Below, piece after piece: positions 21,067 to 36,312 of a DNA stretch of 64,000 nt. Source of the stretch: Candidatus Gorgyraea atricola (GTDB lineage: Bacteria > Omnitrophota > Gorgyraeia > Gorgyraeales > Gorgyraeaceae). Each line of letters begins with the position of its first letter. Position 1 is the first letter of the stretch. A program made the position numbers and the translations under genes. The notes beneath the pieces were generated by a model, which ran no database searches, had not been told where the DNA came from, and worked only from the letters and a program-made list of their open reading frames with translations. The DNA lies in contig JAVCCW010000010.1 of assembly GCA_030765235.1 (NCBI GenBank), positions 30,907 to 94,906 on the forward strand. The letters are read 5' to 3'.

Positions 21067-22212
21067 TTAGCAATCCTGAATAACTTCCAATCCAAAATCT
21101 CTCAATATAGAGATATTTATATTTCTATCATACTTTTGCCGTATAATACTTGCTACTTCATCGGAATAACCAGCCGCCATAATAATAACAGCATCGACGG
21201 GGTCTGAGTTAAGTGTGTCAGGAGAAACTATACGAACATGTGTAGCTGGCGTGAATTTGCCTTGCTTAAACGGAGCTGAATCAACAACATATTTTATTTT
21301 ATCAGCTAAATTTGCCAGAGAGATAACTGCAAGCGCCTGATGGCCGGCGCCCCATATTGCAACTTGTTTGCATCTATATTGGCCCATATAGTTGTTTATT
21401 TCATTTTTAAGCTGCGACTGATATTTATAAAAATGCGCTATATCCAGTCTTACCTTTTTTTTTACAACAGCAGAAATTATATAGTCATGCCACTCTTCAT
21501 TGCATTCGATAATTTTAAAACCATTTCGCTCTATGACTGCATTTAAAGTTTCTTTCGTAAAATAAAATAGATGATCGCATGTAAATTCAGAGAAAAGTTT
21601 ATTTCGTAAAATCATATCAAAATTTGGTACCTCGATGAGTCCTATGGCGTCATCTGTCAAATTGTTATATATTCCTCTAAGGGCTGAATGTGGATCAGGC
21701 AGATGTTCAAGAAAATTCAATATAAAAAAGGCATCGAACGGGGCATGGTTTAATTTATAAGTACTGCTTTGGATGAATCCTTTTGAAGCCTTTAAGCCGT
21801 TCTTGACACACTGCCTCACCGATTCTGTGGAATGCTCCAATCCATAAGCATCTACCCCAAACTGCTGCATGATAGACAAATACTCCCCACAACCACAGCC
21901 GATTTCAATAACTTTCTTTCTTTTGAGAGAATATTTTTGTATAAAGCGGTTGAATTGCTTCCTTCGAAAATCTTTCATTTCCTCTGAAAACCGAGCGGCG
22001 CGTATAACCTCCTTATAATAAGGGACAGGATCATTGCTTAGCTGTACTAATCCGCAGCCTGAACACTGACAGACTTCCAGATCAATTCCCTTATCGTCTT
22101 CGAGCGACTCTGCATCTGGCAAAAATTGAGCAGCCTTTGGCATATTTTCGTATCGCAGCAATGGTTCTTCGAAAAATTTATGGGCACATACTCTACACTT
22201 GTTTATTGGCAT
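21067..22212 (-). CDS. Zn-ribbon + class I SAM methyltransferase + C-methyltransferase C-terminal domain (TylCIII/TcaB9-like NDP-hexose C-methyltransferase)
   Basis: 381 aa; N-terminal CxxC...CxxC; SAM motif I VIEIGCGCGEY; C-terminal Rossmann-like domain (VAIWGAGHQA). Confidence 0.55.
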   Translation of the reverse strand: MPINKCRVCAHKFFEEPLLRYENMPKAAQFLPDAESLEDDKGIDLEVCQCSGCGLVQLSNDPVPYYKEVIRAARFSEEMKDFRRKQFNRFIQKYSLKRKKVIEIGCGCGEYLSIMQQFGVDAYGLEHSTESVRQCVKNGLKASKGFIQSSTYKLNHAPFDAFFILNFLEHLPDPHSALRGIYNNLTDDAIGLIEVPNFDMILRNKLFSEFTCDHLFYFTKETLNAVIERNGFKIIECNEEWHDYIISAVVKKKVRLDIAHFYKYQSQLKNEINNYMGQYRCKQVAIWGAGHQALAVISLANLADKIKYVVDSAPFKQGKFTPATHVRIVSPDTLNSDPVDAVIIMAAGYSDEVASIIRQKYDRNINISILRDFGLEVIQDC

Positions 22213-23084
22213 AAAAACAGCTTCCCATCAATAGAATCTTTCTTTTCTAAATACCAATGATACAATTCATCAATACAATCATCCATATTGCAAAAAGAAT
22301 AGTCCCCTATTTTGCTAAGTAGTTTGGAATTATCACCGCTATATTCTCTGCCAAGATCACCATGAGAGACTTTAATATCTAATCTTTTTCCAGATACCTT
22401 AAGGACTTTTCGAGCCAATGTCAATAGGTCGAAAGTCTCGCCTCTACAAACGTTATAACATTTATCCTCTGGTTCATTTTCGATAAACCATCCTGTAATC
22501 CTTATAAGGTCATCAATATAGAGATAATCAAGAAATACATTCTGCTTTATTGTTATTGGTAAGTCCCATACTGTTCTGCAGCACGCGTTAGAAATAAATC
22601 GTATTTTCCAATCCTCATATTTGCCAAAAACACCGAAAACTCTCAGATTGTAAATGTTTTCGGATTTTTCCGCATACTTGCACATAATGTATTTCGAAAA
22701 AACATCTTGATCTTTTGGCACGCAAATATCAAAGTAATCTTCATTCATTCTATGTATCCAATGTTCTCGGCCATAGACCGCTCCTGACCCATAGTAAATC
22801 ATCTTTCCGTATTCACCATGGCAGCGGGCAAGATTAAAAAACATCCTGAGATTGTATTCCAAGATTTTATTTGTATCTTTTTTTGAGTTCCTTGCTGCAT
22901 TCCATGCACAATGAACTATCGCGTCAAAATGGTGTTTCTTAAGATAATTACTGACTTTTCTTTCATTTAACAGTTCGAGTTCTTCATGGGATGGGGCATA
23001 AATTTTATATTTATCCTGAAGCTGCTCCTTTAGGTTTCGACCGATAAACCCTGTTCCTCCTGTAATAAAAATCTTCTTTTTCAT
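22203..23084 (-). CDS. NAD(P)-dependent epimerase/dehydratase/reductase (extended SDR; CDP/NDP-4-keto-sugar reductase candidate)
   Basis: 293 aa; N-terminal FITGGTGFIGRNL Rossmann motif; overlaps neighbours (operon). Confidence 0.7.
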   Translation of the reverse strand: MKKKIFITGGTGFIGRNLKEQLQDKYKIYAPSHEELELLNERKVSNYLKKHHFDAIVHCAWNAARNSKKDTNKILEYNLRMFFNLARCHGEYGKMIYYGSGAVYGREHWIHRMNEDYFDICVPKDQDVFSKYIMCKYAEKSENIYNLRVFGVFGKYEDWKIRFISNACCRTVWDLPITIKQNVFLDYLYIDDLIRITGWFIENEPEDKCYNVCRGETFDLLTLARKVLKVSGKRLDIKVSHGDLGREYSGDNSKLLSKIGDYSFCNMDDCIDELYHWYLEKKDSIDGKLFLCQ

Positions 23085-23104: not shown

Positions 23105-24616
23105 TTAATCTAACCAGTGAGTAACTAAGGTCTTGCGATGTTTATTCTTTGCTATTTCTTTATCAGTATAATATGAATCCTTTGCATGATGCGTTGATGA
23201 AATCTCTTCGATTATTGCGCCGGCCCTGCTGCCAAAACTATGTTTTTTCTTTCTCTCCACAGTAACTAAGCTGCCGGCCTTATATTCCGTCTCGACCCCA
23301 TCTATCGTAAGCAGGATATCTCCATATAAAACCTGGAAGGTCTCCTCTTTTATCTTGTGGTATTGCTCAGGGTGCTTCTGCCCGGGAAGCATCACTATCA
23401 GTTTCTTGCAATATTCACGGTTTACAAAATTAATCATCGTACAGCCCTGCTCTTCGACCTTATCTACCCCATAGTGATGCGATATCTCAAGATCTAATTT
23501 GCCTGGAACCAACACATTACTCTTCTTTAAAATAGCCTTTACCTTCTGAACCACACTATAGACCCTTTCTCTGTTATCCACCTGCCTTAGATTAGCTAAA
23601 GGTATCGGCTTATTTACATCCATGTCTGAAGTGGCATAAAAATCTGTGTATTTGGACATATCATTTGCCGTGATCTGACCCTCTGCCGTAGGTATAGCCA
23701 GAAAGGTATTAGATAGCTCAATCATCTCGCCCTTTTTTATTTTTCTACTGGCAAAGACACCTCTTTTTAAAGACTGTAGAGCCTTTGTCTCTTTCTCGGT
23801 AAATCCTGACCTCTTCATAGCGGTTCCGCACATCTGTAAGGCCTCAAGCGCTGACTCCAACCATAGCCTGACTTGTCCGGGAACAACTGAATAACCATTA
23901 AGGCCAAACTGTCCTGTCCTTATCCCTGCATGCTTTTCAAATACCCTTGCGCCTTTTCCTATCGCGATCTTAATGGAAACAAAATTATCAGGCTCCTCAT
24001 GAGCTGAATAACCAATATCTACCTGAGGGTACCTTGCCTTCAGTAAGTCTATCTGATTTAATTGCAGGCCTTTTTTAGGAGTAGGGTATTCAGCTACGCA
24101 ATGCATGAGCGCAAAGGCCTTCTCCCTGTGTTCAAGAAAACTAACAACCTTATCTATCTCTTCCAGAGGCAAGCCAGCAGTGGAGACAATAATGGGTTTA
24201 TTGGTCTTCACAACCCTTTCCAGCAAAGGCCAATCAGTAGCAGAGCAGCTGCCGATCTTAATGATGTCAAAATCCTGTCTTTCTATTAGATCAACTGAGG
24301 CCTCATCAAATGGCGTACAAACCGAGACAAACCCCAGGTTATCGATCTCGTCCTTCAATACCTTAAACTGATTTTCATCAAGCCGAGTTTCTAAAAAACG
24401 TTTAACGTATTTAAATTCAAACTTCTTCTTAAAATCCGGGTGAATAAAGGTATCTAAATCCCTGTATTGCAGCTTAAACCCAAAATTAAAGTCGAACCCC
24501 TTGCAGATCTTATGTATCTCCCTGATGATCTTTAAGCCGTGCTCCACGTTTCCCATGTGGTTATTAGCCATCTCGAAGATAAACAGATTGTGAAATATGC
24601 CCTTGTCCAATCCCAT
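23105..24616 (-). CDS. NeuB-like ulosonic-acid synthase (TIM barrel + SAF domain) fused to C-terminal cupin domain
   Basis: 503 aa; N-terminal IFEMANNHMGN (NeuB/SpsE-type), SAF block (GVFASRKIKKGEMI), extra about 130 aa C-terminal beta-rich His-containing cupin-like domain. Confidence 0.6.
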   Translation of the reverse strand: MGLDKGIFHNLFIFEMANNHMGNVEHGLKIIREIHKICKGFDFNFGFKLQYRDLDTFIHPDFKKKFEFKYVKRFLETRLDENQFKVLKDEIDNLGFVSVCTPFDEASVDLIERQDFDIIKIGSCSATDWPLLERVVKTNKPIIVSTAGLPLEEIDKVVSFLEHREKAFALMHCVAEYPTPKKGLQLNQIDLLKARYPQVDIGYSAHEEPDNFVSIKIAIGKGARVFEKHAGIRTGQFGLNGYSVVPGQVRLWLESALEALQMCGTAMKRSGFTEKETKALQSLKRGVFASRKIKKGEMIELSNTFLAIPTAEGQITANDMSKYTDFYATSDMDVNKPIPLANLRQVDNRERVYSVVQKVKAILKKSNVLVPGKLDLEISHHYGVDKVEEQGCTMINFVNREYCKKLIVMLPGQKHPEQYHKIKEETFQVLYGDILLTIDGVETEYKAGSLVTVERKKKHSFGSRAGAIIEEISSTHHAKDSYYTDKEIAKNKHRKTLVTHWLD

Positions 24617-24626
24617 AATATATCCC

Positions 24627-26426
24627 CTATATTTTAGAAATACTCATATTTTCTGCCAGCTCTTCTCTTGACAAAAACGGAAACATGTCTTCCAGAGGCC
24701 TTGACTCAAAGGACCCGTCCGCTCTTTTGTAAGAGGCTGCCTTTGGATTCAATCCTTGATGAGGTGATATATTCAATTCACACAAGATAGGCCCTGGCTC
24801 TGATAAAACCCTACTTACCTTGCTTTCGATCTCTTTATTTGTTAAAATTTTTTCATAACCTAATCCATAGGCAATAGCTACCTTTTTAAAATCTGGATTG
24901 CTTATACCTGACCGTTCGTCTGCCCCCACATAATGACTATTAAAAAAGGTATCTTGTGTCAACCTGATAGATGTATAGCCGGCATTGTTAATGATAAATA
25001 TCTTTATCGGAAGATTATGATGCCTTATAAGCTGCAGTTCCTGGATATTCATCTGCATGCTCCCGTCTCCTGTAATGCAAATAGTCCTTTTACGATCATT
25101 AGCGATACAGGCCCCGATACTGGCAGGTAATCCCCACCCCATTGCCCCATAGCCATTATTTGTAAAGGCCCTCTGCTGCGGCTTCACCTTAAATGCCTGG
25201 TAAAGACATAATGCGGCCATGCCATTACCCGTGACTACCACATCCTGCTCTGTTAATAAGTCTGATAATTTGTCATAAAAAATATATGTATCAACATGAG
25301 CCTCATCTTCAAAAAATTCATTAACGATAGAGGGATAGCGTTTTTTCCAATTTTTACATGCGTCAAGCCACCCCGCAGGGGCACGAAGATCTATTTCTTT
25401 AAGCTGATTTAAAAATTCTTCTAAAAAATCTTTCGCATCGGCTTGAATACGAACATCAGGAGAGAGTGTTGACTTTTGTAATTCTCGTTCATCTACATCC
25501 ACTATAATCTTTTTGGCATTCGGGGCAAATGCCTTATAATTATATCCAACAATCTTTATGTTCATTCGAGATCCTATGCTTAAGAGGCAATCAGAATTCT
25601 GTATCGCAAAATTCGCCCTTCTCTGGCCTATAATACCTGCCTTTCCTATAAGTAATGGGTGCGCGTCTGGAATCAAATCCATGCCGTTAAATGAAAGCAC
25701 TGCGGGAATCTGAATCCTTTCAAGGATTTGCTTCAACAAGTCTTCTGCCCTGGCTATTCGTATGCCATATCCACATAATATCACCGGCCTCTTGGCCCTC
25801 TTTAGCATCTCCATGACTTTACTTACGTGGAGTCTTTTTTTAAGCCGCGGCAACGAGTCCTTTGGCCTAAAGGAATGAAGATTTTCTATATCAATAAAGC
25901 TGCCCTGGACATCAAGAGGTATATTGATCCATACTGGCCCAGGCCTCCCTGTAGTGGCTTTATAAAAAGCTAACTCTAATTCGTATTTAATCATCTTGGG
26001 GTCTAAAATTGTTTTGGCGTATTTTGTAATAGGCTTGATCGTCTCGATAATATTGATCTCCTGCTCGCCTATCTGTCTTATTTTCGAATAATCCGCTATA
26101 AGCTCCCTTTTAACCTGACCGGAAATAACCATCATCGGTACAGAATCAACCCATGCGCTCGCAACCCCTGAAATCGCATTTGTACTTCCGGGACCTGTAG
26201 TGACAAGACATGATGATATATGATTTTTTAACCTCGCATACCCTTCTGCGCAATATCCAACAGCCTGCTCATTATAATTACAAAAATACTTTATATTTTT
26301 ATTTCGCCCCACTGAGTCCACAAGGTGGATGATCCCCCCTCCAGCGATCATGAATATATCCATGATCCCTTTTTGGACTAAAAAATCTATTACATAATCT
26401 GAAAGCTTTATCATCTTATCCTTCAA
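24627..26426 (-). CDS. Thiamine-diphosphate-dependent enzyme of the acetolactate-synthase-large-subunit family (YerE-like branched-sugar synthase candidate)
   Basis: 599 aa; three-domain TPP fold; TPP-binding GDGSMQMNIQEL motif; located beside rfbF/rfbG/rfbH. Confidence 0.8.
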   Translation of the reverse strand: MKDKMIKLSDYVIDFLVQKGIMDIFMIAGGGIIHLVDSVGRNKNIKYFCNYNEQAVGYCAEGYARLKNHISSCLVTTGPGSTNAISGVASAWVDSVPMMVISGQVKRELIADYSKIRQIGEQEINIIETIKPITKYAKTILDPKMIKYELELAFYKATTGRPGPVWINIPLDVQGSFIDIENLHSFRPKDSLPRLKKRLHVSKVMEMLKRAKRPVILCGYGIRIARAEDLLKQILERIQIPAVLSFNGMDLIPDAHPLLIGKAGIIGQRRANFAIQNSDCLLSIGSRMNIKIVGYNYKAFAPNAKKIIVDVDERELQKSTLSPDVRIQADAKDFLEEFLNQLKEIDLRAPAGWLDACKNWKKRYPSIVNEFFEDEAHVDTYIFYDKLSDLLTEQDVVVTGNGMAALCLYQAFKVKPQQRAFTNNGYGAMGWGLPASIGACIANDRKRTICITGDGSMQMNIQELQLIRHHNLPIKIFIINNAGYTSIRLTQDTFFNSHYVGADERSGISNPDFKKVAIAYGLGYEKILTNKEIESKVSRVLSEPGPILCELNISPHQGLNPKAASYKRADGSFESRPLEDMFPFLSREELAENMSISKI

Positions 26427-27412
26427 AAAATACCCTTATACCAGTTTATGGTTTTCTTCAAGCCTTCTTCCAAGCTATGCTTTGGTTTCCAGCCAAGGGC
26501 CTTTCTTGCCTTCCATGATGAAAGATGCTGATGTCTAATCTCATGCCTTACCTTGCTTAGAATTTTATAAGATGGCCTTATGCCGGCTAGTTGATAAATC
26601 TTTTTTACCATCTTTATGACCGATACGGGTTTCTCATTGCTGAAGTTAAATGCCTCTCCTTCTAATTTCAATCTTTGCAAATTTTCAGCAAGCAGAATAT
26701 ATCCATTCATAATATCCTCGACATAAACATAATCACGCGTAAATCTTCCATCGCTGCGAATAAGTAATTTCCTGTTCTGAAGCGCTGATCTGATTGCATC
26801 AGGGGCAATCCTTGAAAAATGGAAATCCCCAGGGCCAAAGACATTGCCGCATCTGGTTATGCCTACAGGTAAATTATAGGTATTATAATAAGTATGCGCT
26901 AATAAATCCGCGCAGCTTTTAGAAGCGTCATATGGATGATTACCAGATAAAGGAGCGTCTTCCTTATATGGAAGTTTATTAGTCTCTCCGTAGGCCTTAT
27001 CGCTTGAGGCTATTACAATGGATTCTATGAATTTTTTATTTCTTGACGCCTCTAAAATATTCCATGTGCCTTCAATGTTTGATTTAAAAGTCTTAATGGG
27101 GTTCTTGTTAGCCTCGAGAACTATCGCCTCAGCAGCCAGATGAAAAATAGTCTGCGGCTTAAATCTTTCAATGACATTTTTAACTAATTCTAAATTTATA
27201 ATATCTCCCCTGACGCAGGTTATATCCTTTCTTAAGCCGTTAAGCATAGAAACTGGGCGATTTTTTATCTTGTCGATGCCTGTTATTCTAGCGCCATAGC
27301 CCAGTAAAACCTTGGCAAGCCAAGAACCCAGAAAACCTTCATGGCCTGTTATCAAAACCTTTCTATCTTTCCAAAAGACACCTTTTCTATTGCTCATTCC
27401 CAGACCTTCCAA
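26423..27412 (-). CDS. rfbG: CDP-glucose 4,6-dehydratase
   Basis: 329 aa; FWKDRKVLITGHEGFLGSWL N-terminus characteristic of RfbG/DdhB; SDR YxxxK; 4-nt overlap with rfbF (operon). Confidence 0.8.
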   Translation of the reverse strand: MEGLGMSNRKGVFWKDRKVLITGHEGFLGSWLAKVLLGYGARITGIDKIKNRPVSMLNGLRKDITCVRGDIINLELVKNVIERFKPQTIFHLAAEAIVLEANKNPIKTFKSNIEGTWNILEASRNKKFIESIVIASSDKAYGETNKLPYKEDAPLSGNHPYDASKSCADLLAHTYYNTYNLPVGITRCGNVFGPGDFHFSRIAPDAIRSALQNRKLLIRSDGRFTRDYVYVEDIMNGYILLAENLQRLKLEGEAFNFSNEKPVSVIKMVKKIYQLAGIRPSYKILSKVRHEIRHQHLSSWKARKALGWKPKHSLEEGLKKTINWYKGIF

Positions 27413-28182
27413 GGAGCCCTATTTTCCTTCCACATCTGATTTAAGTTACCATATTCCCTGATAGTGTCAACACAGTACCAAAATCCTTTATGTTCATATA
27501 CGCCCATCTGTTTATCTTTTACCATGTTAGGCAGGGTCTCGCCCTCCAAAACTAAATCTTCTCCTGGCCTGAAATATTTATGAATGACCTTTTTATTAAA
27601 GACCATAAATCCGCCATTAAACAACCCCGTGCTTACATTAGGTTTCTCATTAAAGGAAGATATCATATTGCCGGTGGCCTGTATTTCACCAAAACGGCTA
27701 GCAGGATAAACTCCTGTTATTGTACCCAATAAACTGGATTTTTTATGAGTCTCTATCAACTCCTTTATATCAATATCAGCGACACCATCCGCGTAAGTCA
27801 CGCCAAAGATATTACTGTGCTCTAAATACTTACGCACATTCCAAATCCTTGCTCCAGTTTGAGAATTCTCCCCTGTTTCCACCATAGTAACTTTCCAATC
27901 TAAATCTTCATTACGATGATGACGATAGACTGCCAAACCTTTTTTATTTAAATTTACGGTTACATCTGAAACCTTGGCCATGTAATTTAAGAAAAATTCC
28001 TTTATCAGCCATCCTTTATAACCAAGGCATAGGACAAAATCTTTTATGCCATAATGAGCGTACATCTTCATTATATGCCAGATCATAGGCCTATCGCCTA
28101 TAGGAAGCATGGCCTTAGGCAAAACCTCGGAAACATCCCTGATCCTTGTTCCTCTACCACCGCATAGGATTACTAACTTCAT
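27394..28182 (-). CDS. rfbF: Glucose-1-phosphate cytidylyltransferase
   Basis: 262 aa; MKLVILCGGRGTRI...LPKAMLPIGDRPMIWHIMKMY, near-canonical RfbF/DdhA. Confidence 0.85.
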   Translation of the reverse strand: MKLVILCGGRGTRIRDVSEVLPKAMLPIGDRPMIWHIMKMYAHYGIKDFVLCLGYKGWLIKEFFLNYMAKVSDVTVNLNKKGLAVYRHHRNEDLDWKVTMVETGENSQTGARIWNVRKYLEHSNIFGVTYADGVADIDIKELIETHKKSSLLGTITGVYPASRFGEIQATGNMISSFNEKPNVSTGLFNGGFMVFNKKVIHKYFRPGEDLVLEGETLPNMVKDKQMGVYEHKGFWYCVDTIREYGNLNQMWKENRAPWKVWE

Positions 28183-28263
28183 GATATCCTCCTCTGGACT
28201 TTGAAATTCCCTGCAATAAATTATAAGTATACAGCCTAATTCTCTTTAAGTCCAATATTTTAC

Positions 28264-29367
28264 TCAGATAAAATTAACATGCATCGGTTCTTTGCCTTTT
28301 ACATCTTCTAATGCGGCCTCTCCGCGCTTCAGATCCAATAGAAAGTCATTAACGCTATGTTGAAGGCATAAAGTGCCGCACATGGTCCTGGCGTCAAACT
28401 CCTCAGACGCGATTAGATCTATAACATCCCAGTAGCGCTTGCTTTCCCAGATCTTTTTAAACGGTGTATCAACTATATTTCCTATATGATATTTTTTATA
28501 CCTTCTGTTAAATAACATCCCGCATGGCGCCACAAGGCCTGAACCTGAAAACTGCATGATAAAAGGCGGGCCATAGCAGCGGGAATATCTGCGCTTACCC
28601 TTGCTTAAAATCTTAGACCATTTTACCCTTACTATGCACTGCTTGTCTGAATACGATTCTGCCTGCTTTAAGAGATCCTTGAGCGGCTCATATTTGGAAT
28701 AATCAATACCTAAAGACCCCCTCTCGTCATCACTGCAGTGTTTGATAATAACATAGTCTACTCCGAGCTCCTTGCCAAGCCTTACCACTGGAATGATCTG
28801 GTCTTTAAAATCAGGCATTAGAACCATCTGCAGGCCAAGCGTAACATTCAGGTTTTTCTGTCTTTTTATCTTCACGCATTTTTTTATAATATCACTTACT
28901 GCGTAAAAATGTTCTCTCCTGCACCCCATAATACGCGCATATCTTTCAGGTTCTCCAGCTGAAATATTGAACCTCAAATACGTAAGCGCTGATAAAATTT
29001 CCTCTAAGCGCTCTTCTTGCAAAAGATAACCGTTTGTAGCCAGGGCCATGTCTAATCCATTGGCCTTACCCCTTATTATGGCATCGTATAAATGAGAAGA
29101 GCATGTGCTTTCTCCGTCGCTTACAAGGCTTATTGCCTTTACGCCGATCTCAGCCGCATCATCCAGGAATCTGAAGATAACATCCCTGGTCATCCTTTTT
29201 TCATCATTGGCCTGAAGCTGGCCATAGCAATACACGCATCTATACGTGCATTTCCTGGTAAGCGCGCAGTCTATGGTTATGGGCGCAATCCGTTCCCCCT
29301 GCAGCCAGGCCTCAACCCTATCTCTGTGCCAGTGTAATTTATGACCATCCAGTAGCAGCTCTGTCAT
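28264..29367 (-). CDS. Radical SAM protein, paralog A (shared family with 32154-33218)
   Basis: 367 aa; CTYRCVYC (CX3CX2C); N-terminal HKLHWHRDRVEAWLQGERIAPI block and C-terminal ...HVNFI both shared with the 354-aa paralog. Confidence 0.75.
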   Translation of the reverse strand: MTELLLDGHKLHWHRDRVEAWLQGERIAPITIDCALTRKCTYRCVYCYGQLQANDEKRMTRDVIFRFLDDAAEIGVKAISLVSDGESTCSSHLYDAIIRGKANGLDMALATNGYLLQEERLEEILSALTYLRFNISAGEPERYARIMGCRREHFYAVSDIIKKCVKIKRQKNLNVTLGLQMVLMPDFKDQIIPVVRLGKELGVDYVIIKHCSDDERGSLGIDYSKYEPLKDLLKQAESYSDKQCIVRVKWSKILSKGKRRYSRCYGPPFIMQFSGSGLVAPCGMLFNRRYKKYHIGNIVDTPFKKIWESKRYWDVIDLIASEEFDARTMCGTLCLQHSVNDFLLDLKRGEAALEDVKGKEPMHVNFI

Positions 29368-30137
29368 TAAGATTTTTTATAACGCTGCGCTGATGCGCAA
29401 CCCTGAGTAAACTTGTATCTTTTGCTTTTCTCTTTCTTTCCAAAGTATATGTCATACACTAATTTCAGGTATTCCTTTATAACCTGCAGAGAATTTGAGA
29501 ATGTAGTTGCCTTTGATTTGCCAATCTTTCTTGATCCTAACCTATAGGGAACCTCTGCAAATAGATATCCTCTCTTTGCGAGCCTTATTAAAATATCCGC
29601 CTGAAAAAAGAAACTCGAGCTTCTATAATCCAAATCACTCAAGATCGATCTTCTGTAAAGAACAGTCCCGTGGGGATAGTTAAAGGACGTGCCGAATGTG
29701 CTATTAAGAATTTTCAATAAGAAAAAAGATAGTATATTTCTAAATAATGTCCTGTCGCGTTTATTATAGACAAAGGGGATTACCATATCGACTTCATCCA
29801 AGAGTTTTAAATAGCGAAATATCTCATAAGGGTCATTTTCATCGTCTCCGGGCAGCATGCAAACTATCTCACCCCTGGCATTCAGGATGCCATCCCAAAA
29901 TGACACGCCTATGCCCTGCGGAGTTTCGTGATTAATCAGGCGGATTCTATTGCCTTCTTTGGACATTAATTCTTTCACAAGCTCCAATGTCTTATCGCTC
30001 GAGCCATCATTAATAATAACAATCTCTCCATCTACTTTAAAGGCCTCAAAGGCCTTTAAAGTATTATTGATAGCGGATAAAATGTTCTTTTGTTCGTTTA
30101 ACGCTGGCATTATTATACTTAAAAATACAGGGCTCAC
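29367..30137 (-). CDS. GT2 glycosyltransferase (Dpm1-like, soluble)
   Basis: 256 aa; LSIIMPALNEQ N-terminus, DGSSD, DxD-type region (MLPGDDENDP). Confidence 0.75.
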   Translation of the reverse strand: MSPVFLSIIMPALNEQKNILSAINNTLKAFEAFKVDGEIVIINDGSSDKTLELVKELMSKEGNRIRLINHETPQGIGVSFWDGILNARGEIVCMLPGDDENDPYEIFRYLKLLDEVDMVIPFVYNKRDRTLFRNILSFFLLKILNSTFGTSFNYPHGTVLYRRSILSDLDYRSSSFFFQADILIRLAKRGYLFAEVPYRLGSRKIGKSKATTFSNSLQVIKEYLKLVYDIYFGKKEKSKRYKFTQGCASAQRYKKS

Positions 30138-31180
30138 TCTTTCACCTTTTTGCTTATAACATCGACTATATCTTTATAATCAGGGTAAAATTCTTTTTCC
30201 AGCGCAGAAGAGGCAGGTGTATGCGATTCAGGCAAACCAATTCTTGCTGCAGGAGACTTTAGATATTTGAATGCCTTTTCAGAGACCCTTGAAACTATCT
30301 CTGCTGCCACCCCGCAATTACTCCAACCTGTATCTGCCACAACTAATCTGCCTGTCTTTTTAACGGATTCTAAGATCAGATCTTCGTCTAATGGTGTTAA
30401 TGTGCGCAGGTCTATCACCTCGACGCTCACCCCATGTTTTTGTAAAACCTCTTGTGCCTTCAGAGATTCAAACATCATATAAGAAATACCCACAAGAGTC
30501 ACATCTCTGCCGATTCTCCGAACAACACCTTTGCCGAACGGTACAGTATACATATCTTCAGGGACATACCCTACGTGTTCATATAACCATCTATGTTCTA
30601 TGAAAATAACAGGGGTATTTTCCTTTACGCTCGAAATCAAAAGGCCTTTAACATCATAAGGAGTGGCTGGCATTGCGACCCTCAAGCCAGGCACATGCAT
30701 AAAAAGCGCCTGCAGGCTTTGTGAATGCTGGCTGGCAGAACCCCAGCCCCTGCCTATTATCGACCTTATGGTCAAAGGGATTTTGACTGTCCCGCCAAAC
30801 ATATAGCTCCATTTTGCAGCATGATTAATTATTTGATCCATTGACATGGGTAAAAAATCCATTCGCATATGAATAAAAACTGGCCTCATGCCAGTAATTG
30901 CAGCGCCTATGGCAATGCCTGTGGTGGCATTTTCTGCAATAGGTATATCAATAATTCTGGATCGTCCAAACCTTTTATGTAGATCTTTGGTAGTGCCAAA
31001 TACCCCACCTGCATCATCTATGCCTTCGCCGATTAAAAAGACTCTGCTATCTTCCTCTAATATCTGAGTAAAGGCCTCTTTTATGGCCTCTCTATAAGTA
31101 AGGCCTCTTAAAGGCTTGCCACTCTCCTTGCGAGCATTTTCAAATTCTGTCCTGTCAGGATAAACCTTTGTCCACGGCAT
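30134..31180 (-). CDS. TPP-dependent 2-oxoacid dehydrogenase E1 component beta subunit (transketolase-like Pyr + C-terminal domains)
   Basis: 348 aa; E1-beta layout (GEGIDDAGGVFGTT ... transketolase C-terminal domain); 4-nt overlap with GT2 gene and adjacent to E1 alpha. Confidence 0.8.
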   Translation of the reverse strand: MPWTKVYPDRTEFENARKESGKPLRGLTYREAIKEAFTQILEEDSRVFLIGEGIDDAGGVFGTTKDLHKRFGRSRIIDIPIAENATTGIAIGAAITGMRPVFIHMRMDFLPMSMDQIINHAAKWSYMFGGTVKIPLTIRSIIGRGWGSASQHSQSLQALFMHVPGLRVAMPATPYDVKGLLISSVKENTPVIFIEHRWLYEHVGYVPEDMYTVPFGKGVVRRIGRDVTLVGISYMMFESLKAQEVLQKHGVSVEVIDLRTLTPLDEDLILESVKKTGRLVVADTGWSNCGVAAEIVSRVSEKAFKYLKSPAARIGLPESHTPASSALEKEFYPDYKDIVDVISKKVKE

Positions 31181-31182
31181 AG

Positions 31183-32157
31183 TTAATACACGTCCTCTAA
31201 CAATCCTTCTTTTTTCGGAAACGATGAAGACTTGGCAAAGGATACTGCTTTTTCGATTTCTCTTCCCAAGCTTTCCTTTATATCCCCTATATCCCGTATT
31301 GATAAAATTCCTTCTTTCAAAATAGATTTTCTAAACCTCTCTATCGGGCATTTTTTAAGCCACCTATCCAGTTCCCCTCTTGGCCTGCACCCTGTTTCAA
31401 AATCACAATCCGGCCCCACATGGCCTTTCCATCTATAGGTCCTGCATTCAAGTAAGCTCGGGCCTTTGTTGTTTTTCGCCCTTTCCACAGCAACCCTGGC
31501 CGCTTCAAAAACCTCTCCTACATCATTTCCATCTATCTTTATGCCTGGGATTCCATAAGGTAGTCCTTTTTTATATATATTATCCAGGGCCTGCCTCGCA
31601 GATGCTGGCGAATTAGTCGCATAAAAATTATTTTCGCAGACAAAGACAACAGGCAGTTTTTTTAAGGCTGCGAAATTCAAGCTTTCGTTAAATGTGCCTT
31701 CATCTGTTGCGCCATCACCAAAAAATACCACGCTGATTCTTTTCTGCTCCTGCATTACTGAACCCATGGCCGCGCCAACTGCAATAGGTATGCCTCCGCC
31801 CACTATTGCAGAGCTGCCCATAAACCCATTCTTAGTGTCCGCTAAGTGCATAGAGCCGCCCTTACCTTTTGAACAACCTGTAACCCTTCCGTACAGCTCA
31901 GCCATAAACTCATTTAAATCCCCACCATTAGCAATATAATGACCATGACCTCTGTGGTTACTAAACACATAATCTGTTTTTTTGAGGTTTGCGCACACGC
32001 CAGCAGCTATTGCCTCCTGTCCTATGCATAGATGCACAGGACACTTTATCTCCTGATCAGGATAGAGCTCGATTATCTTTTCTTCAACCATCCTGATCTT
32101 CAGCATGGTTTCAAAAAGCCAGATAAATGTCTTTCTGTCAATCCCTTGCATTTTCAT
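31183..32157 (-). CDS. TPP-dependent 2-oxoacid dehydrogenase E1 component alpha subunit
   Basis: 324 aa; TPP-binding GDGATDEGTFNESLNFAA motif of E1-alpha; paired with beta subunit. Confidence 0.8.
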   Translation of the reverse strand: MKMQGIDRKTFIWLFETMLKIRMVEEKIIELYPDQEIKCPVHLCIGQEAIAAGVCANLKKTDYVFSNHRGHGHYIANGGDLNEFMAELYGRVTGCSKGKGGSMHLADTKNGFMGSSAIVGGGIPIAVGAAMGSVMQEQKRISVVFFGDGATDEGTFNESLNFAALKKLPVVFVCENNFYATNSPASARQALDNIYKKGLPYGIPGIKIDGNDVGEVFEAARVAVERAKNNKGPSLLECRTYRWKGHVGPDCDFETGCRPRGELDRWLKKCPIERFRKSILKEGILSIRDIGDIKESLGREIEKAVSFAKSSSFPKKEGLLEDVY

Positions 32158-33218
32158 ATAAAATTGACATGTGCCAGGGGCCTTTTAAGCTCCCATAAGT
32201 ACCTATTTACGTCATCGAGCCTACAAATCTCGCGGCAATTTCGCGAATCGAGTCTCGTTGCAGCCATATTCAAAATCTTTCTACGCGCCTCACCTTTAAT
32301 GATGTCAGAAAATTCACCCTTATATATATTCCCATACACAAATCTCTTTTCACCTAAATACGCGCTGCAAGCAGAGACATTACCCTCTGCGTCTATATAT
32401 GCCCAGAAAGGTAGCCCCGGGCAATGTTTATAGACCCTGTTCTTTTTTAGTTTTTCCATTGTCTGGGATCTGAATATTATCTTGAATTCCTCTGTCGATA
32501 TCCTTTTAAGCCTATCCTCCAGATATAAAAATTTAGCATAGTCAAAATCCTTGTCTATATTACTACGGCTCATTGGATGTTTTGAAAATGGCTTTATTAT
32601 TAGATAATCCACGCCTGTCTTTTTAATGAGTTTGGCTAACTTAATGACCTCTCCCTTGTTTTCTGGAATCAATAGCATCTGGACGCCTATCGTGCAATCT
32701 AATCTAAATTTACGTTTGTATCTTACAGCCCTATCCAAATTAGAGAGGACTTTTTCAAAATCTCCCTTTAAGCATCTATGAATCTTTTTGTAGGTAACTG
32801 CGGTAGATGCATTAAAACTTACTCGTATCCACGAGAGACTCTTAAGGCACTTTTTTATTATTTCATCATTAAGAAATACCCCATTTGTAGTAACAGCTGC
32901 ATCAATCCCTGAGCTTTTTGTAAAATTTATTATACGGGCTATATCCCCATGAAGAAGGGGCTCGCCCTCACCTGCGTACATTATGCTTTTTACTCCACAT
33001 TTAGCCGCGCTTTTTACAGCCCCTAGTAAAATCTTTGTATCCAGGAATTTCGGTTTATATCCCATATAATCTAATCCGCAGAATATGCATCGATGATTGC
33101 AGGCGCCAGAAGGCGCGATCTCCATGTAAATAGGCGCTATCAACTCGCCCTTCTGCCATCGATTTACCCTATCAACATGATATATTAATTTATGATTATC
33201 TATTCTCAGTTCATCCAT
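32154..33218 (-). CDS. Radical SAM protein, paralog B
   Basis: 354 aa; CNHRCIFC; N-terminal HKLIYHVDRVNRWQKGELIAPI and C-terminal ...AHVNFI shared with paralog A. Confidence 0.75.
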   Translation of the reverse strand: MDELRIDNHKLIYHVDRVNRWQKGELIAPIYMEIAPSGACNHRCIFCGLDYMGYKPKFLDTKILLGAVKSAAKCGVKSIMYAGEGEPLLHGDIARIINFTKSSGIDAAVTTNGVFLNDEIIKKCLKSLSWIRVSFNASTAVTYKKIHRCLKGDFEKVLSNLDRAVRYKRKFRLDCTIGVQMLLIPENKGEVIKLAKLIKKTGVDYLIIKPFSKHPMSRSNIDKDFDYAKFLYLEDRLKRISTEEFKIIFRSQTMEKLKKNRVYKHCPGLPFWAYIDAEGNVSACSAYLGEKRFVYGNIYKGEFSDIIKGEARRKILNMAATRLDSRNCREICRLDDVNRYLWELKRPLAHVNFI

Positions 33219-33231
33219 AACAATCTCTTCT

Positions 33232-34161
33232 CTATTTTAATAATTTTGCAATGTTTTTATATATGGACTCTGGTTTTATATTGTGCATACAGCTTTTACT
33301 GTATTTACAAACAGTGTTAAAACACGGCATGCATTCTAAGCTCTTATCCGGTTTTATTACCATACCTCCATTGCAAAGAAACACCTCTTTCTCTGAGGTT
33401 GGGCCAAACATTGCAATGATGCCTTTCTTCAGCGCTATTGCAAGATGCAATCCCAGCGAATCGTTTGTAATAATAAGCCTGCAGCTATTAAGCCAGTCAA
33501 TGTAACCATTTATATCACTAAGCGACTGCTGGTATGAAATTGAATATCTTCCATCTATTAATTTCTCTAATCTTCTCCAGTTTTTTTTGGGCCATGTCTT
33601 GTTTGGCCATCGCATCCCAACCTTGGTATTAAACCCTATATCAAATCTCTGCTGAGTCTTTGGTTTATAGCCCAGTATATAGCCTTGTTCTGACCATCTT
33701 GCCCCTACCATTTCATAAAGCATCTGGGTCCAGTTTTTTTTCATCTTCCGCCGCAGCACAGGATCTTCGGAATTTGCCACTGCTTCATATGAATGCTCGT
33801 ACGCCTCTGCTGTTCCTTTTTTTACATCAAATCTGAAACCATATCTCTTCCACGCGTTTATAGAATCCGTAAGCGCGCATACACCCGGAATCTTTTCCAG
33901 ATTTATAATCATGTCGAACTCTTGGGACTTAAGCTGCAGGGAAGTGGTTAAGTCATACACCAGCAGCTTATTTATATAAGGATTGCCTGTCAAAAGGGGG
34001 CTCGCCTCTTTAGTGGTAAGCCATGTTACATCATCCTTCTTGAACAGATGCAATATTGCCGTGGTCCTAAAGACATCGCCAAGGCTGACATTTTCAGTAG
34101 AGACCTTTTTATCAATAGTCTCTGTAAACCCCATCTTAACGATAAGTATCTTTCTTTTCAT
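33232..34161 (-). CDS. GT9-family glycosyltransferase (heptosyltransferase-like); start refined to MKRKILIV
   Basis: ORF track start at 34176 lies inside the palindromic repeat; internal ATG at 34161 gives MKRKILIVKMGF...; GT9 features (LGDVFRTTAIL..., C-terminal GPTS/ FGPTSEKE). Confidence 0.6.
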   Translation of the reverse strand: MKRKILIVKMGFTETIDKKVSTENVSLGDVFRTTAILHLFKKDDVTWLTTKEASPLLTGNPYINKLLVYDLTTSLQLKSQEFDMIINLEKIPGVCALTDSINAWKRYGFRFDVKKGTAEAYEHSYEAVANSEDPVLRRKMKKNWTQMLYEMVGARWSEQGYILGYKPKTQQRFDIGFNTKVGMRWPNKTWPKKNWRRLEKLIDGRYSISYQQSLSDINGYIDWLNSCRLIITNDSLGLHLAIALKKGIIAMFGPTSEKEVFLCNGGMVIKPDKSLECMPCFNTVCKYSKSCMHNIKPESIYKNIAKLLK

Positions 34162-34171
34162 AGGAGTTAGA

Positions 34172-34226
34172 CCCATCCGACCGCGTAGGTCAGATTTAAA
34201 TCTGACCTACGCGGTCGGATGGGTAG
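34172..34226. repeat. 55-bp perfect palindromic (REP/MITE-like) element, copy 1, intergenic
   Basis: cccatccgaccgcgtaggtcagatttaaatctgacctacgcggtcggatggg; homologous (about 85%) to palindrome at 46129-46184. Confidence 0.7.
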
Positions 34227-34228: not shown

Positions 34229-35968
34229 TTACAGTCTCTTTAGAAGCACGAGGCTGAATTCATTGCTGGTAAAGGGCCAGGGTCCGAATTGTTTCTCAAT
34301 CACATAATGGTCTGCTAGATAGCGCATGATGTCCTGCGCATAATCCATGCCGAACCGCGCAGCCCCATATTCTGATGTCAGGCGCCTCAAGATAACAACA
34401 TATTTTACATCTTTATCCTCGAGTTCCTTGGATAGATTTTTTTCGCAGTCTGGCGTCAATGAAATCAAAAGTGGCAAAAACGCATACTGGTGCAGCGGGC
34501 TATCCCTTTCAGAGAGAAAATTTATGGTCAGGCCCTCTGGAAATACTGCAAGCTTATCAGACGGGTCAGTGTTTTTACGCAAATACTCCACTAATTGTTT
34601 GCACCTATAATAACCAGGATGCACCAGCATTGCGCCCCTTGGAGAAGATATCTTCATTGTGCGATTTTTATACCTATAAAGCGAGACAGGTACATGGGCC
34701 ATGATAAAAGATATTGATAGAACTGTAAAAGCAAATCTATAAAAAGCACGCGTGTCTTTCCTCTGCGATATACGTGGAACTATCCTCAGGAAAAAGATGT
34801 AATAACATAGCATGCCAGGGGCAAGCAGATAAAAACCACTATGTTCTGCCCTGACATTGAAAAACATGCGCGCCAATAAAAGAAGTGAAAAAATAGAAAA
34901 AACCGCCAAAAACAGGTCTTGCCTGTCTTTCTTTGCGAAATATCTTCGACAACTGACAATAAACACTAATATGCAGACAATAGGTACGCATCGATATTGC
35001 GCATTATAATGAAAGAATTCTTTTTGAAACAAAACAGTAGTAGCTGCGACAACTAATGTCACTCCAATGCCAATGAGGACCTTCTTTGTTGTTGAGATTT
35101 TTTTTACCAGAGAAATCAACCGGCCTGAGGCAAAGAATACAGCGCTCATAGCTACATAATACAAGCTTGTTTTTAGTATGGCTGCGATGTTTCTCCAAAA
35201 ATCAATAGTGCCAAGGGTCTGTCCAGTAAAAGGCCCTTTTATATCTAAGTTTATTAAAAGGGCTTCTTTGCTTGCTACAGTACTGCCTGTAATAATGCCA
35301 AAGAAACCGTAGACGATAGCTGCGGCAAGGGCTGGAAAAAGGCAATAGGCCGCTACCCTTTTAAGCCTATCCTGTTTCTGGCTATCAAGGATTATGCCAA
35401 TAAATATTGAGACCATAAGCACGATGCCTATCTCTACTCGAGTAATCAGCAAAAGCGCTATGAATAAACTGGAGAAGTATGTGCGGCTGCGATAGTAGAA
35501 AAATAAGGCTAAAAACGCTAACGTGATAGCGTGGATCGAGGCATAGCTATAGGGGATGATGTAATTGAAGATGCCTGCCTCATAGTGCTGGCTGAACGCG
35601 AATACAAAAAGAAATGTAAGCACGCATAGCGTTGAAAAAAGCGCGTTTAAAAATATGCGGGATGTCTTGTATAGGAGCACGCACATGAGAGTAGCTGTAA
35701 GTGCACCGCTTATTATAAAAGCGCGCATATGAACGCCAAAGATCATGCACAGAAGACTATTAAAGTATGGTGAAAAAGGCCCGAATTCATAAAATATATC
35801 CCTGTACGGCAATTTGCCAGAAAGGATACTTAAAGGCAAATAAAGCTCCCTACCTGTATCTATCAACAAACTCCCCCACCTGAGCCAGGATACACTAAAT
35901 AAATAAAAACCAGCTCCCATTATAATAAGAGCTGGTATCCATCCTCTCTTCCACAACCGCTTAACCAT
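34229..35968 (-). CDS. Polytopic membrane protein with C-terminal soluble domain (GT-C-like glycosyltransferase candidate); start refined to MVKRLWKRGW
   Basis: ORF track N-terminus (36187) reads through the MITE copy; internal ATG at 35968 begins the first TM helix; about 13 TM helices then about 170 aa soluble tail. Confidence 0.45.
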   Translation of the reverse strand: MVKRLWKRGWIPALIIMGAGFYLFSVSWLRWGSLLIDTGRELYLPLSILSGKLPYRDIFYEFGPFSPYFNSLLCMIFGVHMRAFIISGALTATLMCVLLYKTSRIFLNALFSTLCVLTFLFVFAFSQHYEAGIFNYIIPYSYASIHAITLAFLALFFYYRSRTYFSSLFIALLLITRVEIGIVLMVSIFIGIILDSQKQDRLKRVAAYCLFPALAAAIVYGFFGIITGSTVASKEALLINLDIKGPFTGQTLGTIDFWRNIAAILKTSLYYVAMSAVFFASGRLISLVKKISTTKKVLIGIGVTLVVAATTVLFQKEFFHYNAQYRCVPIVCILVFIVSCRRYFAKKDRQDLFLAVFSIFSLLLLARMFFNVRAEHSGFYLLAPGMLCYYIFFLRIVPRISQRKDTRAFYRFAFTVLSISFIMAHVPVSLYRYKNRTMKISSPRGAMLVHPGYYRCKQLVEYLRKNTDPSDKLAVFPEGLTINFLSERDSPLHQYAFLPLLISLTPDCEKNLSKELEDKDVKYVVILRRLTSEYGAARFGMDYAQDIMRYLADHYVIEKQFGPWPFTSNEFSLVLLKRL

Positions 35969-36044
35969 ATCGCCTATTCTACTATATAACCAATATAGGT
36001 GCAAATATATTATTACATTATTTAAATAATCGCGTTGCTTTTTT

Positions 36045-36312
36045 AAGCTAAATGGAAGGCCTGTTCGCTCAGGTGAAAATTTCCCTCCTCGCTTCGCCCC
36101 GCCCTTTCTACGAAAGGCCGGGGCTTCGCTCGGAAACAGGTCGTCTTTTATTCCGCATTTTGGCGGGACTGAAAAAACTTCACCCACACCATAGGTGTGG
36201 GTGTCGAACAGTTTTCAGCCTTTTGGGCTCATATAATGTGCCAAAGAAACCGCCAAAATGCTACATAAAAGACTAAATTTTCAAATTCGCGCCCAGACCT
36301 TCCATTTAGCTT
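36045..36312 (+). mobile_element. MITE-like element, about 268 bp, family copy 1 (TIR aagctaaatggaaggcctg...; internal hairpins)
   Basis: 23-bp imperfect terminal inverted repeats; shares more than 85% identity with 48841-49096 and, in reverse complement, 50026-50293; contains perfect hairpin cacccacaccataggtgtgggtg; no credible ORF. Confidence 0.6.

Follow-up and report, generated by a model that had tools for sequence, protein, structure and literature searches.

Two kinds of thiamine diphosphate (ThDP) enzyme are established for the branching of sugars, the YerE type of Gram-negative lipopolysaccharide and the E1 alpha/beta type of actinomycete antibiotics (PMC4753412, PMC12247030), and a third kind, the split transketolases, is so far only a proposal (PMC12247030). 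Enzymes of the E1 alpha/beta type, termed alphaKADH2, add a two-carbon (C2) branch from pyruvate to a keto sugar, which is then reduced, methylated or transaminated (PMC12247030, PMC4753412). The donors of the YerE homologs ErwE, MMAR_2332, and MyGE are gamma-hydroxy 2-oxo acids made by a cluster-encoded pyruvate aldolase (Steitz et al., PMC9306805), and these aldolase-derived donors yield the long branches of erwiniose, caryophyllose, and gastriose (PMC9306805). Here we describe a stretch of 64,000 nucleotides (the window) from the metagenome-assembled genome of the uncultured Candidatus Gorgyraea atricola (Omnitrophota; GenBank contig JAVCCW010000010.1, positions 30,907 to 94,906), in which a YerE-like gene and an E1 alpha/beta pair lie in one gene array. 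The first-pass annotation of the window had taken this co-occurrence to imply either two different branches or a donor/acceptor relay.

The array comprises about 20 tightly packed genes, all on the minus strand, running roughly from 36187 to 12442 in the list of open reading frames (ORFs) of the window. The span flagged earlier, 24627-32157, straddles the junction of two gene sets in this co-directional array, and the coordinates flagged for the YerE-like gene, E1 alpha, and E1 beta are exact ORF ends. The first set, module A, consists of a GT9-like glycosyltransferase, two radical S-adenosylmethionine (SAM) enzymes with SPASM domains (rSAM_A and rSAM_B), E1 alpha, E1 beta, a GT2 glycosyltransferase, and a further radical SAM enzyme (rSAM_D). 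The second, cassette B, has 12 genes, encoding a cytidylyltransferase (CytT), a 4,6-dehydratase (46DH), the YerE-like enzyme, a NeuB-cupin fusion, a short-chain dehydrogenase/reductase (SDR), a C-methyltransferase, a B12-binding radical SAM enzyme, a third radical SAM/SPASM enzyme (rSAM_C), RfbH, GtrB, GtrA, and YfhO. Window proteins were assigned to families by Pfam and NCBIfam profile searches, nearest solved relatives were sought in the PDB, and transmembrane (TM) segments were located by a hydropathy scan. Two sets of homologous loci were compared with the window. The E1 set came from the 80 species-representative genomes with the closest E1 alpha homologs (48-75% identity), with neighbour families defined by de novo clustering; the YerE set held 80 metagenome loci centred on YerE homologs (44-72% identity), alongside which three loci centred on the NeuB-cupin gene (L164-L166) were compared, and some counts were taken over 83 loci.

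We found that the array is best read as two separable modules joined in one operon, by which two branched sugars would be made through two independent ThDP reactions for one surface glycan; we give this reading a probability of about 0.6. The YerE-like and alphaKADH2-like ThDP carboligases and the pathway to cytidine diphosphate (CDP)-3,6-dideoxyhexoses are known kinds. What appears new is the predicted occurrence of the E1 alpha/beta type, with constant radical SAM partners, in envelope-glycan loci of many uncultured phyla, and the fusion of both ThDP units in one operon. In the literature we found no paper on YerE together with a sialic acid synthase, none linking adenosine diphosphate (ADP)-heptose with radical SAM enzymes and thiamine, and none linking a branched-chain sugar with pyruvate dehydrogenase and O-antigen; the survey of YerE-like and alphaKADH2 clusters by Krug et al. 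(2024) may already list some of these loci.

Identity of the two thiamine diphosphate enzymes

The product of 24627..26426 (599 amino acids) carries the TPP_enzyme_N, TPP_enzyme_M, and TPP_enzyme_C domains (E 8e-30 to 2e-35) and a canonical GDG motif at residue 453. Its best solved relative in the structure search was JanthE (PDB 8rph; 453 bits, 38% identity, full-length alignment), versus 284 bits for the best true acetolactate synthase (ALS). PDB 5ahk, which we take to be PpYerE, scored 250 bits. Among the matches listed, the best 25 of 54 families, the protein fell below the cutoff of every ALS model (TIGR00118, 392 vs 538), and neither an ALS small subunit nor IlvC was found among the Pfam-scanned ORFs of the window. 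JanthE itself has been characterised as an aldehyde-ketone carboligase of the YerE-like group, and the 2-oxo acids it takes range from short to long (PMC12188165). The same three-domain ALS-like ThDP architecture and GDG motif occur in YpYerE (yersiniose A), ErwE (erwiniose), MMAR_2332 (caryophyllose), MyGE (gastriose), and JanthE. Taken with the CDP-sugar setting of the gene, these scores identify its predicted product as a YerE-like ThDP carboligase and not an acetolactate synthase, in line with the first-pass annotation. An exact-sequence contig look-up with this protein and with E1 alpha returned no match.

E1 alpha (31183..32157; 324 amino acids; E1_dh, E 3e-79) retains the GDG...NN motif and the GH catalytic histidine, and matches a Candidatus Gorgyraea protein at NCBI with 100% identity. 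E1 beta (30134..31180; 348 amino acids; Transket_pyr, E 2e-36; Transketolase_C, E 2e-35), whose start was reported to overlap the E1 alpha stop, retains the cofactor-activating glutamate (PIAEN) and the equivalent of His128. Family scores of this order, for both ThDP systems and for RfbH, lie well outside what chance would give. The pair has the fold and catalytic residues of AcoA/AcoB and PdhA/PdhB, with 43-46% identity over the concatenated alpha and beta sequences. The canonical operons for those enzymes encode an E2 after E1 beta, whereas no E2 (lipoyl or 2-oxoacid_dh) was found among the Pfam-scanned ORFs of the window, and the E2 motif DHRxxDG was found in 0/80 homologous E1 loci when ORFs on the strand carrying E1 were scanned. 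Four canonical plasmid-borne pyruvate or acetoin dehydrogenases (44-47% identity) served as controls; all four had an E2 directly after E1 beta, and three of them also had LpdA. In a midpoint-rooted neighbour-joining tree of concatenated E1 alpha and beta, made with no bootstrap values and hence suggestive only, these E2-linked controls formed a clade of their own. The E1 pair is accordingly classed, on sequence and gene context, as a putative 2-oxoacid dehydrogenase-type heterotetramer lacking an E2, and not as a housekeeping enzyme, which agrees with the earlier proposal.

Ordinary metabolism, that is a true acetolactate synthase beside the E1 of a housekeeping pyruvate dehydrogenase (PDH) or acetoin dehydrogenase, would suit the generic family annotations; E1 beta just passes the 'PDH E1 beta' subfamily cutoff (325.9 vs 321), and JGI labels some of the E1 homologs acetoin oxidoreductase. 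E1 alpha, for its part, scored 332.5 with TIGR03182, below the cutoff of 393.85. The YerE-like protein missed every listed ALS cutoff and had JanthE as its best structural relative, no E2, E3, ilvH, or ilvC was found among the scanned ORFs of the window, and the canonical controls differed in gene context as well as in clade. We rejected the housekeeping reading on these grounds and regard it as hardly credible. Neither a grouping of the YerE-like protein with genuine acetolactate synthases in an ilvH/ilvC context nor an E1 pair of housekeeping type with an adjacent E2 was found.

By gene context and description, the window pair may be likened to the alphaKADH2 pairs AviB1/AviB2 (avilamycin), Pau11/Pau12 (paulomycin), and KbDH-alpha/beta (kibdelomycin), and to the aldgamycin and kosinostatin enzymes. 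Like these it has separate alpha and beta chains, an intact ThDP site, and no E2 or E3, and it lies among sugar-modifying and glycosyltransferase genes; the broader clade to which it belongs is often found, as alphaKADH2 is, beside 4,6-dehydratases, aminotransferases, and methyltransferases. The described alphaKADH2 examples come from actinomycete antibiotic clusters, whereas members of the window clade belong to loci for cell-envelope glycans in Omnitrophota, Desulfobacterota, Nitrospirota, Planctomycetota, and others. Unlike the AviB/KbDH-type pairs, the pair in this clade is flanked by two to three radical SAM enzymes and by GT9 or ADP-heptose genes.

Two conserved modules and the question of a relay

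Module A opens, in the variant seen in the window (variant II), with the GT9-like glycosyltransferase of the heptosyltransferase family (33232..34176; PF01075, 52 bits). It is followed by rSAM_A (32154..33218; Radical_SAM and SPASM domains), the E1 pair, a soluble GT2 with no TM segment (29367..30137; Glycos_transf_2, E 4e-23), and rSAM_B (28264..29367; Pfam), the last module A gene before cassette B. rSAM_D (12442..13305; Pfam) lies 15 kb further on, with the 12 genes of cassette B between 28264 and 13305. The order GT9, rSAM_A, E1 alpha, E1 beta, B12-radical-SAM, GT2, rSAM_B, rSAM_D was found in loci L001, L002, and L004, whose proteins are 70-83% identical to those of the window. There rSAM_B and rSAM_D are adjacent, the gene directly after rSAM_B being 72-74% identical to the rSAM_D of the window. 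Neither CDP-sugar nor YerE genes were present in these three loci, which represent relatives at the 75% identity level, L001/L004 being from an Omnitrophota single-cell genome.

The core of rSAM/SPASM, E1 alpha, and E1 beta was present in 46/80 loci, from Omnitrophota, Desulfobacterota, Nitrospirota, Planctomycetota, Geobacteraceae, Elusimicrobiota, and others, with an rSAM_A homolog upstream of E1 alpha in each of the 46 and a GT2 after E1 beta in 36/80; rSAM_B homologs at 63-79% identity span phyla. GT9 homologs (44-70% identity) accompany the E1 pair in 24/80 loci, HldE (PfkB plus cytidylyltransferase) in 23/80, and GmhA (SIS) in 16/80. Two variants of the core were distinguished, one preceded by the ADP-heptose genes HldE and GmhA (15 module loci) and the other with GT9 and rSAM_D, the type of the window (23 loci), and no locus showed both. 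In the other 34/80 loci the E1 pair lies beside DegT aminotransferases, SDRs, methyltransferases, PglC-like transferases, and PglF-like dehydratases. This is the classic context of keto-sugar branching and the one described in the literature for alphaKADH2 (PMC12247030, PMC4753412). A cultured bacterium offers an example of this setting, an E2-less E1 alpha/beta pair at 47% identity on plasmid pDMC1 of Solidesulfovibrio magneticus RS-1 (22514-35407), next to GT2s, a radical SAM enzyme, a NUDIX protein, a kinase, an SDR, a DegT aminotransferase, a nucleotidyltransferase, and a PMT-like glycosyltransferase. Module A is a widespread conserved unit, not previously characterised, which occurs independently of YerE.

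The radical SAM proteins of the window gave weak, sub-threshold similarities only in NCBIfam and the PDB. The best NCBIfam matches of rSAM_A and rSAM_B, each far short of its cutoff, were to a tungsten-enzyme maturase, MoaA, and peptide maturases; these would suit a module devoted not to sugars but to the maturation of a peptide, protein, or cofactor, with the SPASM enzymes as maturases served by the E1 pair. The module genes, however, overlap or lie no more than 13 bp apart, so there is no room for a precursor-peptide ORF; their constant partners are GT2, GT9, HldE/GmhA, aminotransferases, and SDRs, and the nearest solved relatives of rSAM_A, at weak scores, are BlsE (38 bits), viperin, and DesII, all of which act on nucleosides or nucleotide sugars. 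A maturase role, including one in ribosomally synthesised and post-translationally modified peptides, was rejected for want of precursor space and in view of the sugar-gene partners, and seems very unlikely to us.

Cassette B begins with CytT, a glucose-1-phosphate cytidylyltransferase (27394..28182; TIGR02623, 299.1 bits vs a cutoff of 300.25), and the CDP-glucose 4,6-dehydratase 46DH (26423..27412; TIGR02622, 247 bits vs 278). The YerE-like gene and the NeuB-cupin gene (23105..24616) come next, followed by an SDR reductase that is a candidate YerF/ErwF-like enzyme (22203..23084; Epimerase/RmlD_sub_bind domains), an NDP-sugar C-methyltransferase with the TylC3-type domain set (21067..22212; Methyltransf_13, _23, and _14), a B12-binding radical SAM protein with a C-terminal TPR region, probably a methyltransferase (19413..21047; Pfam and NCBIfam), and rSAM_C (18316..19386; Pfam). 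RfbH, a CDP-6-deoxy-4-hexulose 3-dehydrase of the RfbH/DdhC/AscC type (also called E1 in that pathway), is encoded at 16975..18291 (NF011936, 713 bits vs 423). The cassette ends with a GtrB-like GT2, a polyprenyl-phosphate sugar synthase by family, which has a C-terminal membrane anchor (16028..16960; Pfam and hydropathy; the hydrophobic segment at residues 230-290 is consistent with two TM helices), a GtrA-family flippase-like membrane protein (15573..16031; PF04138, E 1e-19; 4 TM), and a YfhO-like GT-C membrane glycosyltransferase (13307..15556; weak YfhO match; about 13-16 TM).

Much of this cassette recurs elsewhere. The 80 YerE-centred loci contained 46DH in 48, RfbH in 45 (52-70% identity), CytT in 38, an SDR in 35, and GtrB in 29; counted over 83 loci, the window SDR clusters with the SDRs beside YerE in 35, and GtrB was again present in 29. 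Locus L084 (YerE at 72% identity) reads CytT-46DH-YerE-NeuBcup, and nearly the whole window cassette is repeated in L085 (YerE at 67% identity), as CytT-YerE-NeuBcup-SDR-CMT-rSAM_C-46DH-RfbH, and in L171 (Saganbacteria), as CytT-46DH-MBL-NeuBcup-190aa-ThDP-CMT-rSAM/SPASM-SDR-RfbH, where CMT is the C-methyltransferase and MBL a metallo-beta-lactamase-fold protein. Cassettes similar to that of L171 were found in Calothrix sp. NIES-2098 (L164), L165, and L170. C-methyltransferase homologs occur in L085 (64%) and L171, rSAM_C homologs in L085 (77%), L044 (66%), and L171, and a B12-radical-SAM homolog (56%) adjoins the rSAM_C homolog of L044; a GtrA-YfhO pair also lies 3' of NeuB-cupin in L166. None of the 80 YerE-centred loci or the NeuB-cupin-centred loci L164-L166 contained E1 alpha or E1 beta. 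Cassette B is a conserved, self-contained, cross-phylum unit separate from the E1 pair. Of its make-up, the CDP-glucose synthesis, 4,6-dehydratase, RfbH-type 3-dehydrase, and flanking SDR reductase resemble the published 'unifying scheme' (PMC9306805). Unlike known YerE systems, it also has the C-methyltransferase, the B12-radical-SAM, and the SPASM radical SAM enzyme, and its product appears to exit by a GtrB/GtrA/YfhO route.

Two further observations concern the cassette. Its distal half (14001-22000) has a G+C content of 0.356-0.380, vs about 0.41-0.43 elsewhere in the window, which is compatible with horizontal acquisition. In L114 and L145, each cassette holds two YerE-like paralogs (41-48% identity to the window protein).

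We next weighed two independent modules against a single pathway, in which both ThDP enzymes work on a single CDP-4-keto sugar line. The E1 pair might, for example, add C2 to CDP-4-keto-6-deoxyglucose with the YerE-like enzyme acting on the 3,6-dideoxy form, or it might make an aldehyde or acyloin that feeds NeuB or YerE. Several observations speak for such a link and weigh against the two-module reading. The two sets share a strand and tight packing, with the CDP-glucose genes immediately downstream of module A; the 81-bp gap before CytT carries a GGAGG ribosome-binding site and a weak promoter-like site, and no terminator was found at the junction by a promoter/terminator scan that performed no better than on shuffled sequence. 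In a metagenomic relative at 88% identity (L167), YerE and NeuB directly follow rSAM_B, so the junction is kept. In two Nitrospirota genomes (L009, L014) the genes after module A are CytT-46DH-RfbH-NeuBcup, and in a gammaproteobacterium (L044) they are CytT-46DH-rSAM_C-B12rSAM; the window holds no heptose genes, HldE and GmhA being absent. Because the juxtaposition of module A and CDP genes recurs, we kept shared use of a CDP-4-keto sugar by both enzymes under consideration. Many of the compared contigs are also short, which makes absences less secure than presences.

On the other side, the E1 pair was found within 10 kb in 0/83 YerE-centred loci, and a YerE-like gene lay within 10 kb in 1/80 E1 loci (L078), on the opposite strand and at 38% identity; the relatives at 75% identity carry module A without CDP genes, and each module has its own glycosyltransferases. 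A relay or a shared acceptor is unlikely because each module occurs without the other in almost all relatives, and because cassette B lies between module A genes that are adjacent in closer relatives. The relay offered by the first-pass annotation was therefore not borne out. Its other option, two different branches, is plausible, although most likely on two different sugars and not on one. Its further statement that both ThDP types lie next to rfbH holds insofar as all are part of one tightly packed minus-strand array; RfbH is 6.3 kb from the YerE-like gene and not adjacent to it.

The NeuB-cupin protein and the donor of the YerE-like enzyme

The gene next to YerE encodes a NeuB-like synthase that would condense phosphoenolpyruvate (PEP), fused to a D-lyxose-isomerase-like cupin (NeuB and Cupin_2). 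Its NeuB domain is closest to PDB 3g8r (392 bits), and its cupin domain is most like a D-lyxose/mannose ketol-isomerase (PDB 2y0o, a lyxose isomerase, 40 bits). Judged against NeuB motifs, the putative PEP and metal ligands appear to be conserved. The protein is far below the NeuB and PseI equivalog cutoffs (TIGR03569, 134.9 vs 399.65; TIGR03586, 117 vs 340). The fusion is conserved at 60-74% in Omnitrophota, Verrucomicrobiota, Margulisiibacteriota (Margulis-/Saganbacteria), Endomicrobiales, cyanobacteria, and a nanoarchaeon, and it lies beside a YerE-like gene, adjacent or with one gene between, in seven loci from different phyla (L084, L085, L164, L165, L168, L170, and L171).

Of the 83 YerE loci, 35 had an HpcH/HpaI aldolase and 24 a NeuB-like protein, with both in none (Fisher p = 7e-8, a value that overstates independence as the loci are related). 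The YerE sequences segregate in the same way, since the nearest labelled neighbour shares the partner type in 53/58, and the window enzyme falls in the NeuB-partnered clade. Because the HpcH aldolase and the NeuB-like synthase are mutually exclusive beside YerE, we propose the NeuB-cupin protein as the maker of the keto-acid donor. In published YerE-type systems the donor-forming partner is a pyruvate aldolase of BphI, HpaI, or citrate-lyase type, whereas the window has the NeuB-like PEP synthase-cupin fusion in its place. The donor of the YerE-like enzyme is, to judge from this neighbour, probably not the pyruvate that the first-pass annotation had assumed but more likely a longer polyhydroxylated 3-deoxy-2-ulosonic acid made by the NeuB-cupin protein, and the branch is probably longer than C2. 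The pattern suggests that YerE-like enzymes may be served by two mutually exclusive classes of donor supplier, and the second of these, the NeuB-like synthases, appears to be new.

The YerE-like enzyme could alternatively form a plain C2 branch of yersiniose type from pyruvate, with the NeuB-cupin protein separately making a sialic-acid- or Kdo-like sugar for the same glycan. Members of the NeuB family normally make nonulosonic acids, and pyruvate is accepted by YpYerE and JanthE (PMC12247030, PMC12188165). Several YerE loci pair NeuB with a NeuC-like gene of the uridine diphosphate N-acetylglucosamine 2-epimerase type, which may be an ordinary nonulosonic-acid pathway and counts against the donor role proposed here, as does the absence from the window cassette of the metallo-beta-lactamase-fold and 190-residue genes that accompany NeuB-cupin elsewhere. 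Neither the window operon nor the L164, L165, L170, and L171 cassettes were found to encode a synthetase for a cytidine monophosphate (CMP)-ulosonic acid, so the NeuB product is unlikely to be an activated sugar itself. This, the strict mutual exclusion of NeuB-like genes and the aldolase, and the low equivalog scores make a C2 branch from pyruvate fairly improbable, and we favour the ulosonic acid as donor.

Other features of these loci touch on the supply of keto acids. A conserved protein of 190-195 amino acids with a faint NT5C/HAD-like match follows NeuB-cupin in L164, L165, L170, and L171, and the NeuB-cupin/ThDP gene pair of L170 and L171 has a gene for a metallo-beta-lactamase-fold protein in front of it; these two companions hint that NeuB acts on, or makes, a phosphorylated compound. 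A triad of HpcH aldolase, short-chain dehydrogenase, and 3-dehydroquinate-synthase-like protein adjoins YerE in L108, L109, L118, L119, L123, L124, and others, the last protein being present in 24 YerE-centred loci, and the triad may be a dedicated means of making the aldehyde with which the aldolase works. A run of four genes at 375-3829 of the window (minus strand) codes for a KDPG/KHG aldolase, an HMGL-like lyase, a zinc alcohol dehydrogenase, and a DeoC/LacD-type aldolase. These could make or cleave 4-hydroxy-2-oxo acids; unrelated envelope genes lie between them and the glycan operon.

Predicted pathways and neighbouring genes

RfbH has a histidine in place of the Schiff-base lysine (in a stretch of 14 protein letters not shown here) and the [2Fe-2S] motif C195-X57-C253-X-C255-X7-C263. 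With the CDP-3,6-dideoxyhexose pathway (DdhA-D/AscA-D) the window shares the cytidylyltransferase, the CDP-glucose 4,6-dehydratase, and the E1 dehydrase with its His-for-Lys exchange and [2Fe-2S] cysteines, whereas the E3 reductase (DdhD/AscD) is missing from it and from nearly all related cassettes. No protein with the AscD/DdhD-type Fer2, FAD_binding_6, and NAD_binding_1 domains was found in the Pfam scan of window ORFs of at least 110 amino acids (three of 153-221 amino acids left out), and no E3 in a three-part motif scan (plant-type 2Fe-2S, RxY[ST], and GxGxxP; a crude test) of all window ORFs of 200-500 amino acids, which bears out the earlier remark on its absence. By the same crude test a single ORF, in L116, was positive among loci L001-L169. 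E3-less cassettes appear by these scans to be the rule in this clade. Because E3 is lacking from nearly all related cassettes, its absence is normal and not distinguishing, and the notion that it marks out this locus as anomalous was rejected. A general reductase would be the likely source of electrons for RfbH, or else an E3 whose gene lies in another part of the genome; SpnQ is an example of a 3-dehydrase that relies on the general reductases of the cell.

From family membership and gene context, the following steps can be proposed. In module A the E1 pair would act as a carboligase of AviB/KbDH type, decarboxylating pyruvate and placing the C2 unit on a keto or aldehyde sugar formed by the partner radical SAM enzymes; the substrate would most likely be a nucleotide-heptose, then transferred by GT9. 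In cassette B, CytT and the 4,6-dehydratase would give CDP-4-keto-6-deoxyglucose, from which RfbH would remove the 3-hydroxyl, with electrons probably from a general ferredoxin/flavodoxin system, given the lack of a nearby E3 gene. A ketose would be isomerised by the cupin to an aldose, which NeuB would condense with PEP to a 3-deoxy-2-ulosonic acid; in other YerE cassettes the HpcH/HpaI pyruvate aldolase would be the supplier. The YerE-like enzyme would decarboxylate this acid and graft the acyl branch on the C4 keto group of CDP-3,6-dideoxy-4-hexulose, after which the SDR may reduce the branch ketone and the C-methyltransferase and B12-radical-SAM enzyme may methylate the product. The GtrB/GtrA/YfhO trio, with the membrane anchor of GtrB and the roughly 13 TM segments of YfhO, points to delivery via undecaprenyl phosphate. 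GtrB would load the sugar, GtrA would flip it, and the YfhO-like GT-C would transfer it to the surface glycan, a periplasmic acceptor.

The heptose acceptor is the weakest point of this scheme, since it draws on comparative context. Besides the lack of HldE and GmhA in the window, GT9 gave a partial match that falls short of the heptosyltransferase cutoffs (TIGR02195, 49 bits), and the keto-sugar-forming enzyme of module A is only presumed to be a radical SAM protein, the partners in the clade being GT9, GT2, HldE/GmhA, aminotransferases, SDRs, and PglF-like enzymes. That every step was read from families and neighbours likewise tells against the scheme. Its joint form, in which the radical SAM and E2-less E1 module branches or extends a heptose-type nucleotide sugar, and in which YerE grafts the NeuB-cupin acid onto CDP-3,6-dideoxy-4-hexulose to give a sugar of at least 13 carbons, is offered as tentative and is more doubtful than not. 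If true, it would extend AviB-type chemistry beyond actinomycete antibiotics and pair it with keto-sugar formation by radical SAM enzymes. Were it confirmed, surface glycans of Omnitrophota, Nitrospirota, Desulfobacterota, and cyanobacteria would be expected to contain new higher-carbon sugars, and a biocatalytically valued enzyme class would gain new donor and acceptor scopes. The cultured organisms Solidesulfovibrio magneticus RS-1 (plasmid pDMC1; E1 pair) and Calothrix sp. NIES-2098 (NeuB-cupin and ThDP enzyme) make these ideas testable.

Upstream of GT9, a polytopic membrane protein (34229..36187; 652 amino acids, about 12 TM) had no Pfam or NCBIfam match. It is a possible glycan polymerase, ligase, or GT-C, and its membership of module A is uncertain; a gene for 590 amino acids takes the equivalent position in the 88% relative L167. 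At 38241-40511 the gene for a 534-residue TPR protein is overlapped at its end by a GT2 gene on the opposite strand. L167 keeps this pair, as a PMT_2/TPR protein and a reversed GT2, upstream of its module A, and homologs of the TPR protein (cluster c19) were seen repeatedly in module A loci. Just downstream of the glycan array, 9803-11311 (minus strand) encodes a response regulator with a truncated GGDEF and a C-terminal MshEN domain, which binds cyclic di-GMP. Further away we observed a patatin-like phospholipase with an N-terminal AAA_31-like region (43610-45118; a weak, sub-threshold Pfam match), an 849-residue protein with six PKD domains and a Sde0182-like C-terminus that is probably surface-located or secreted (52446-54995, minus strand), and a PIN-PhoH fusion protein (55711-57054, minus strand).

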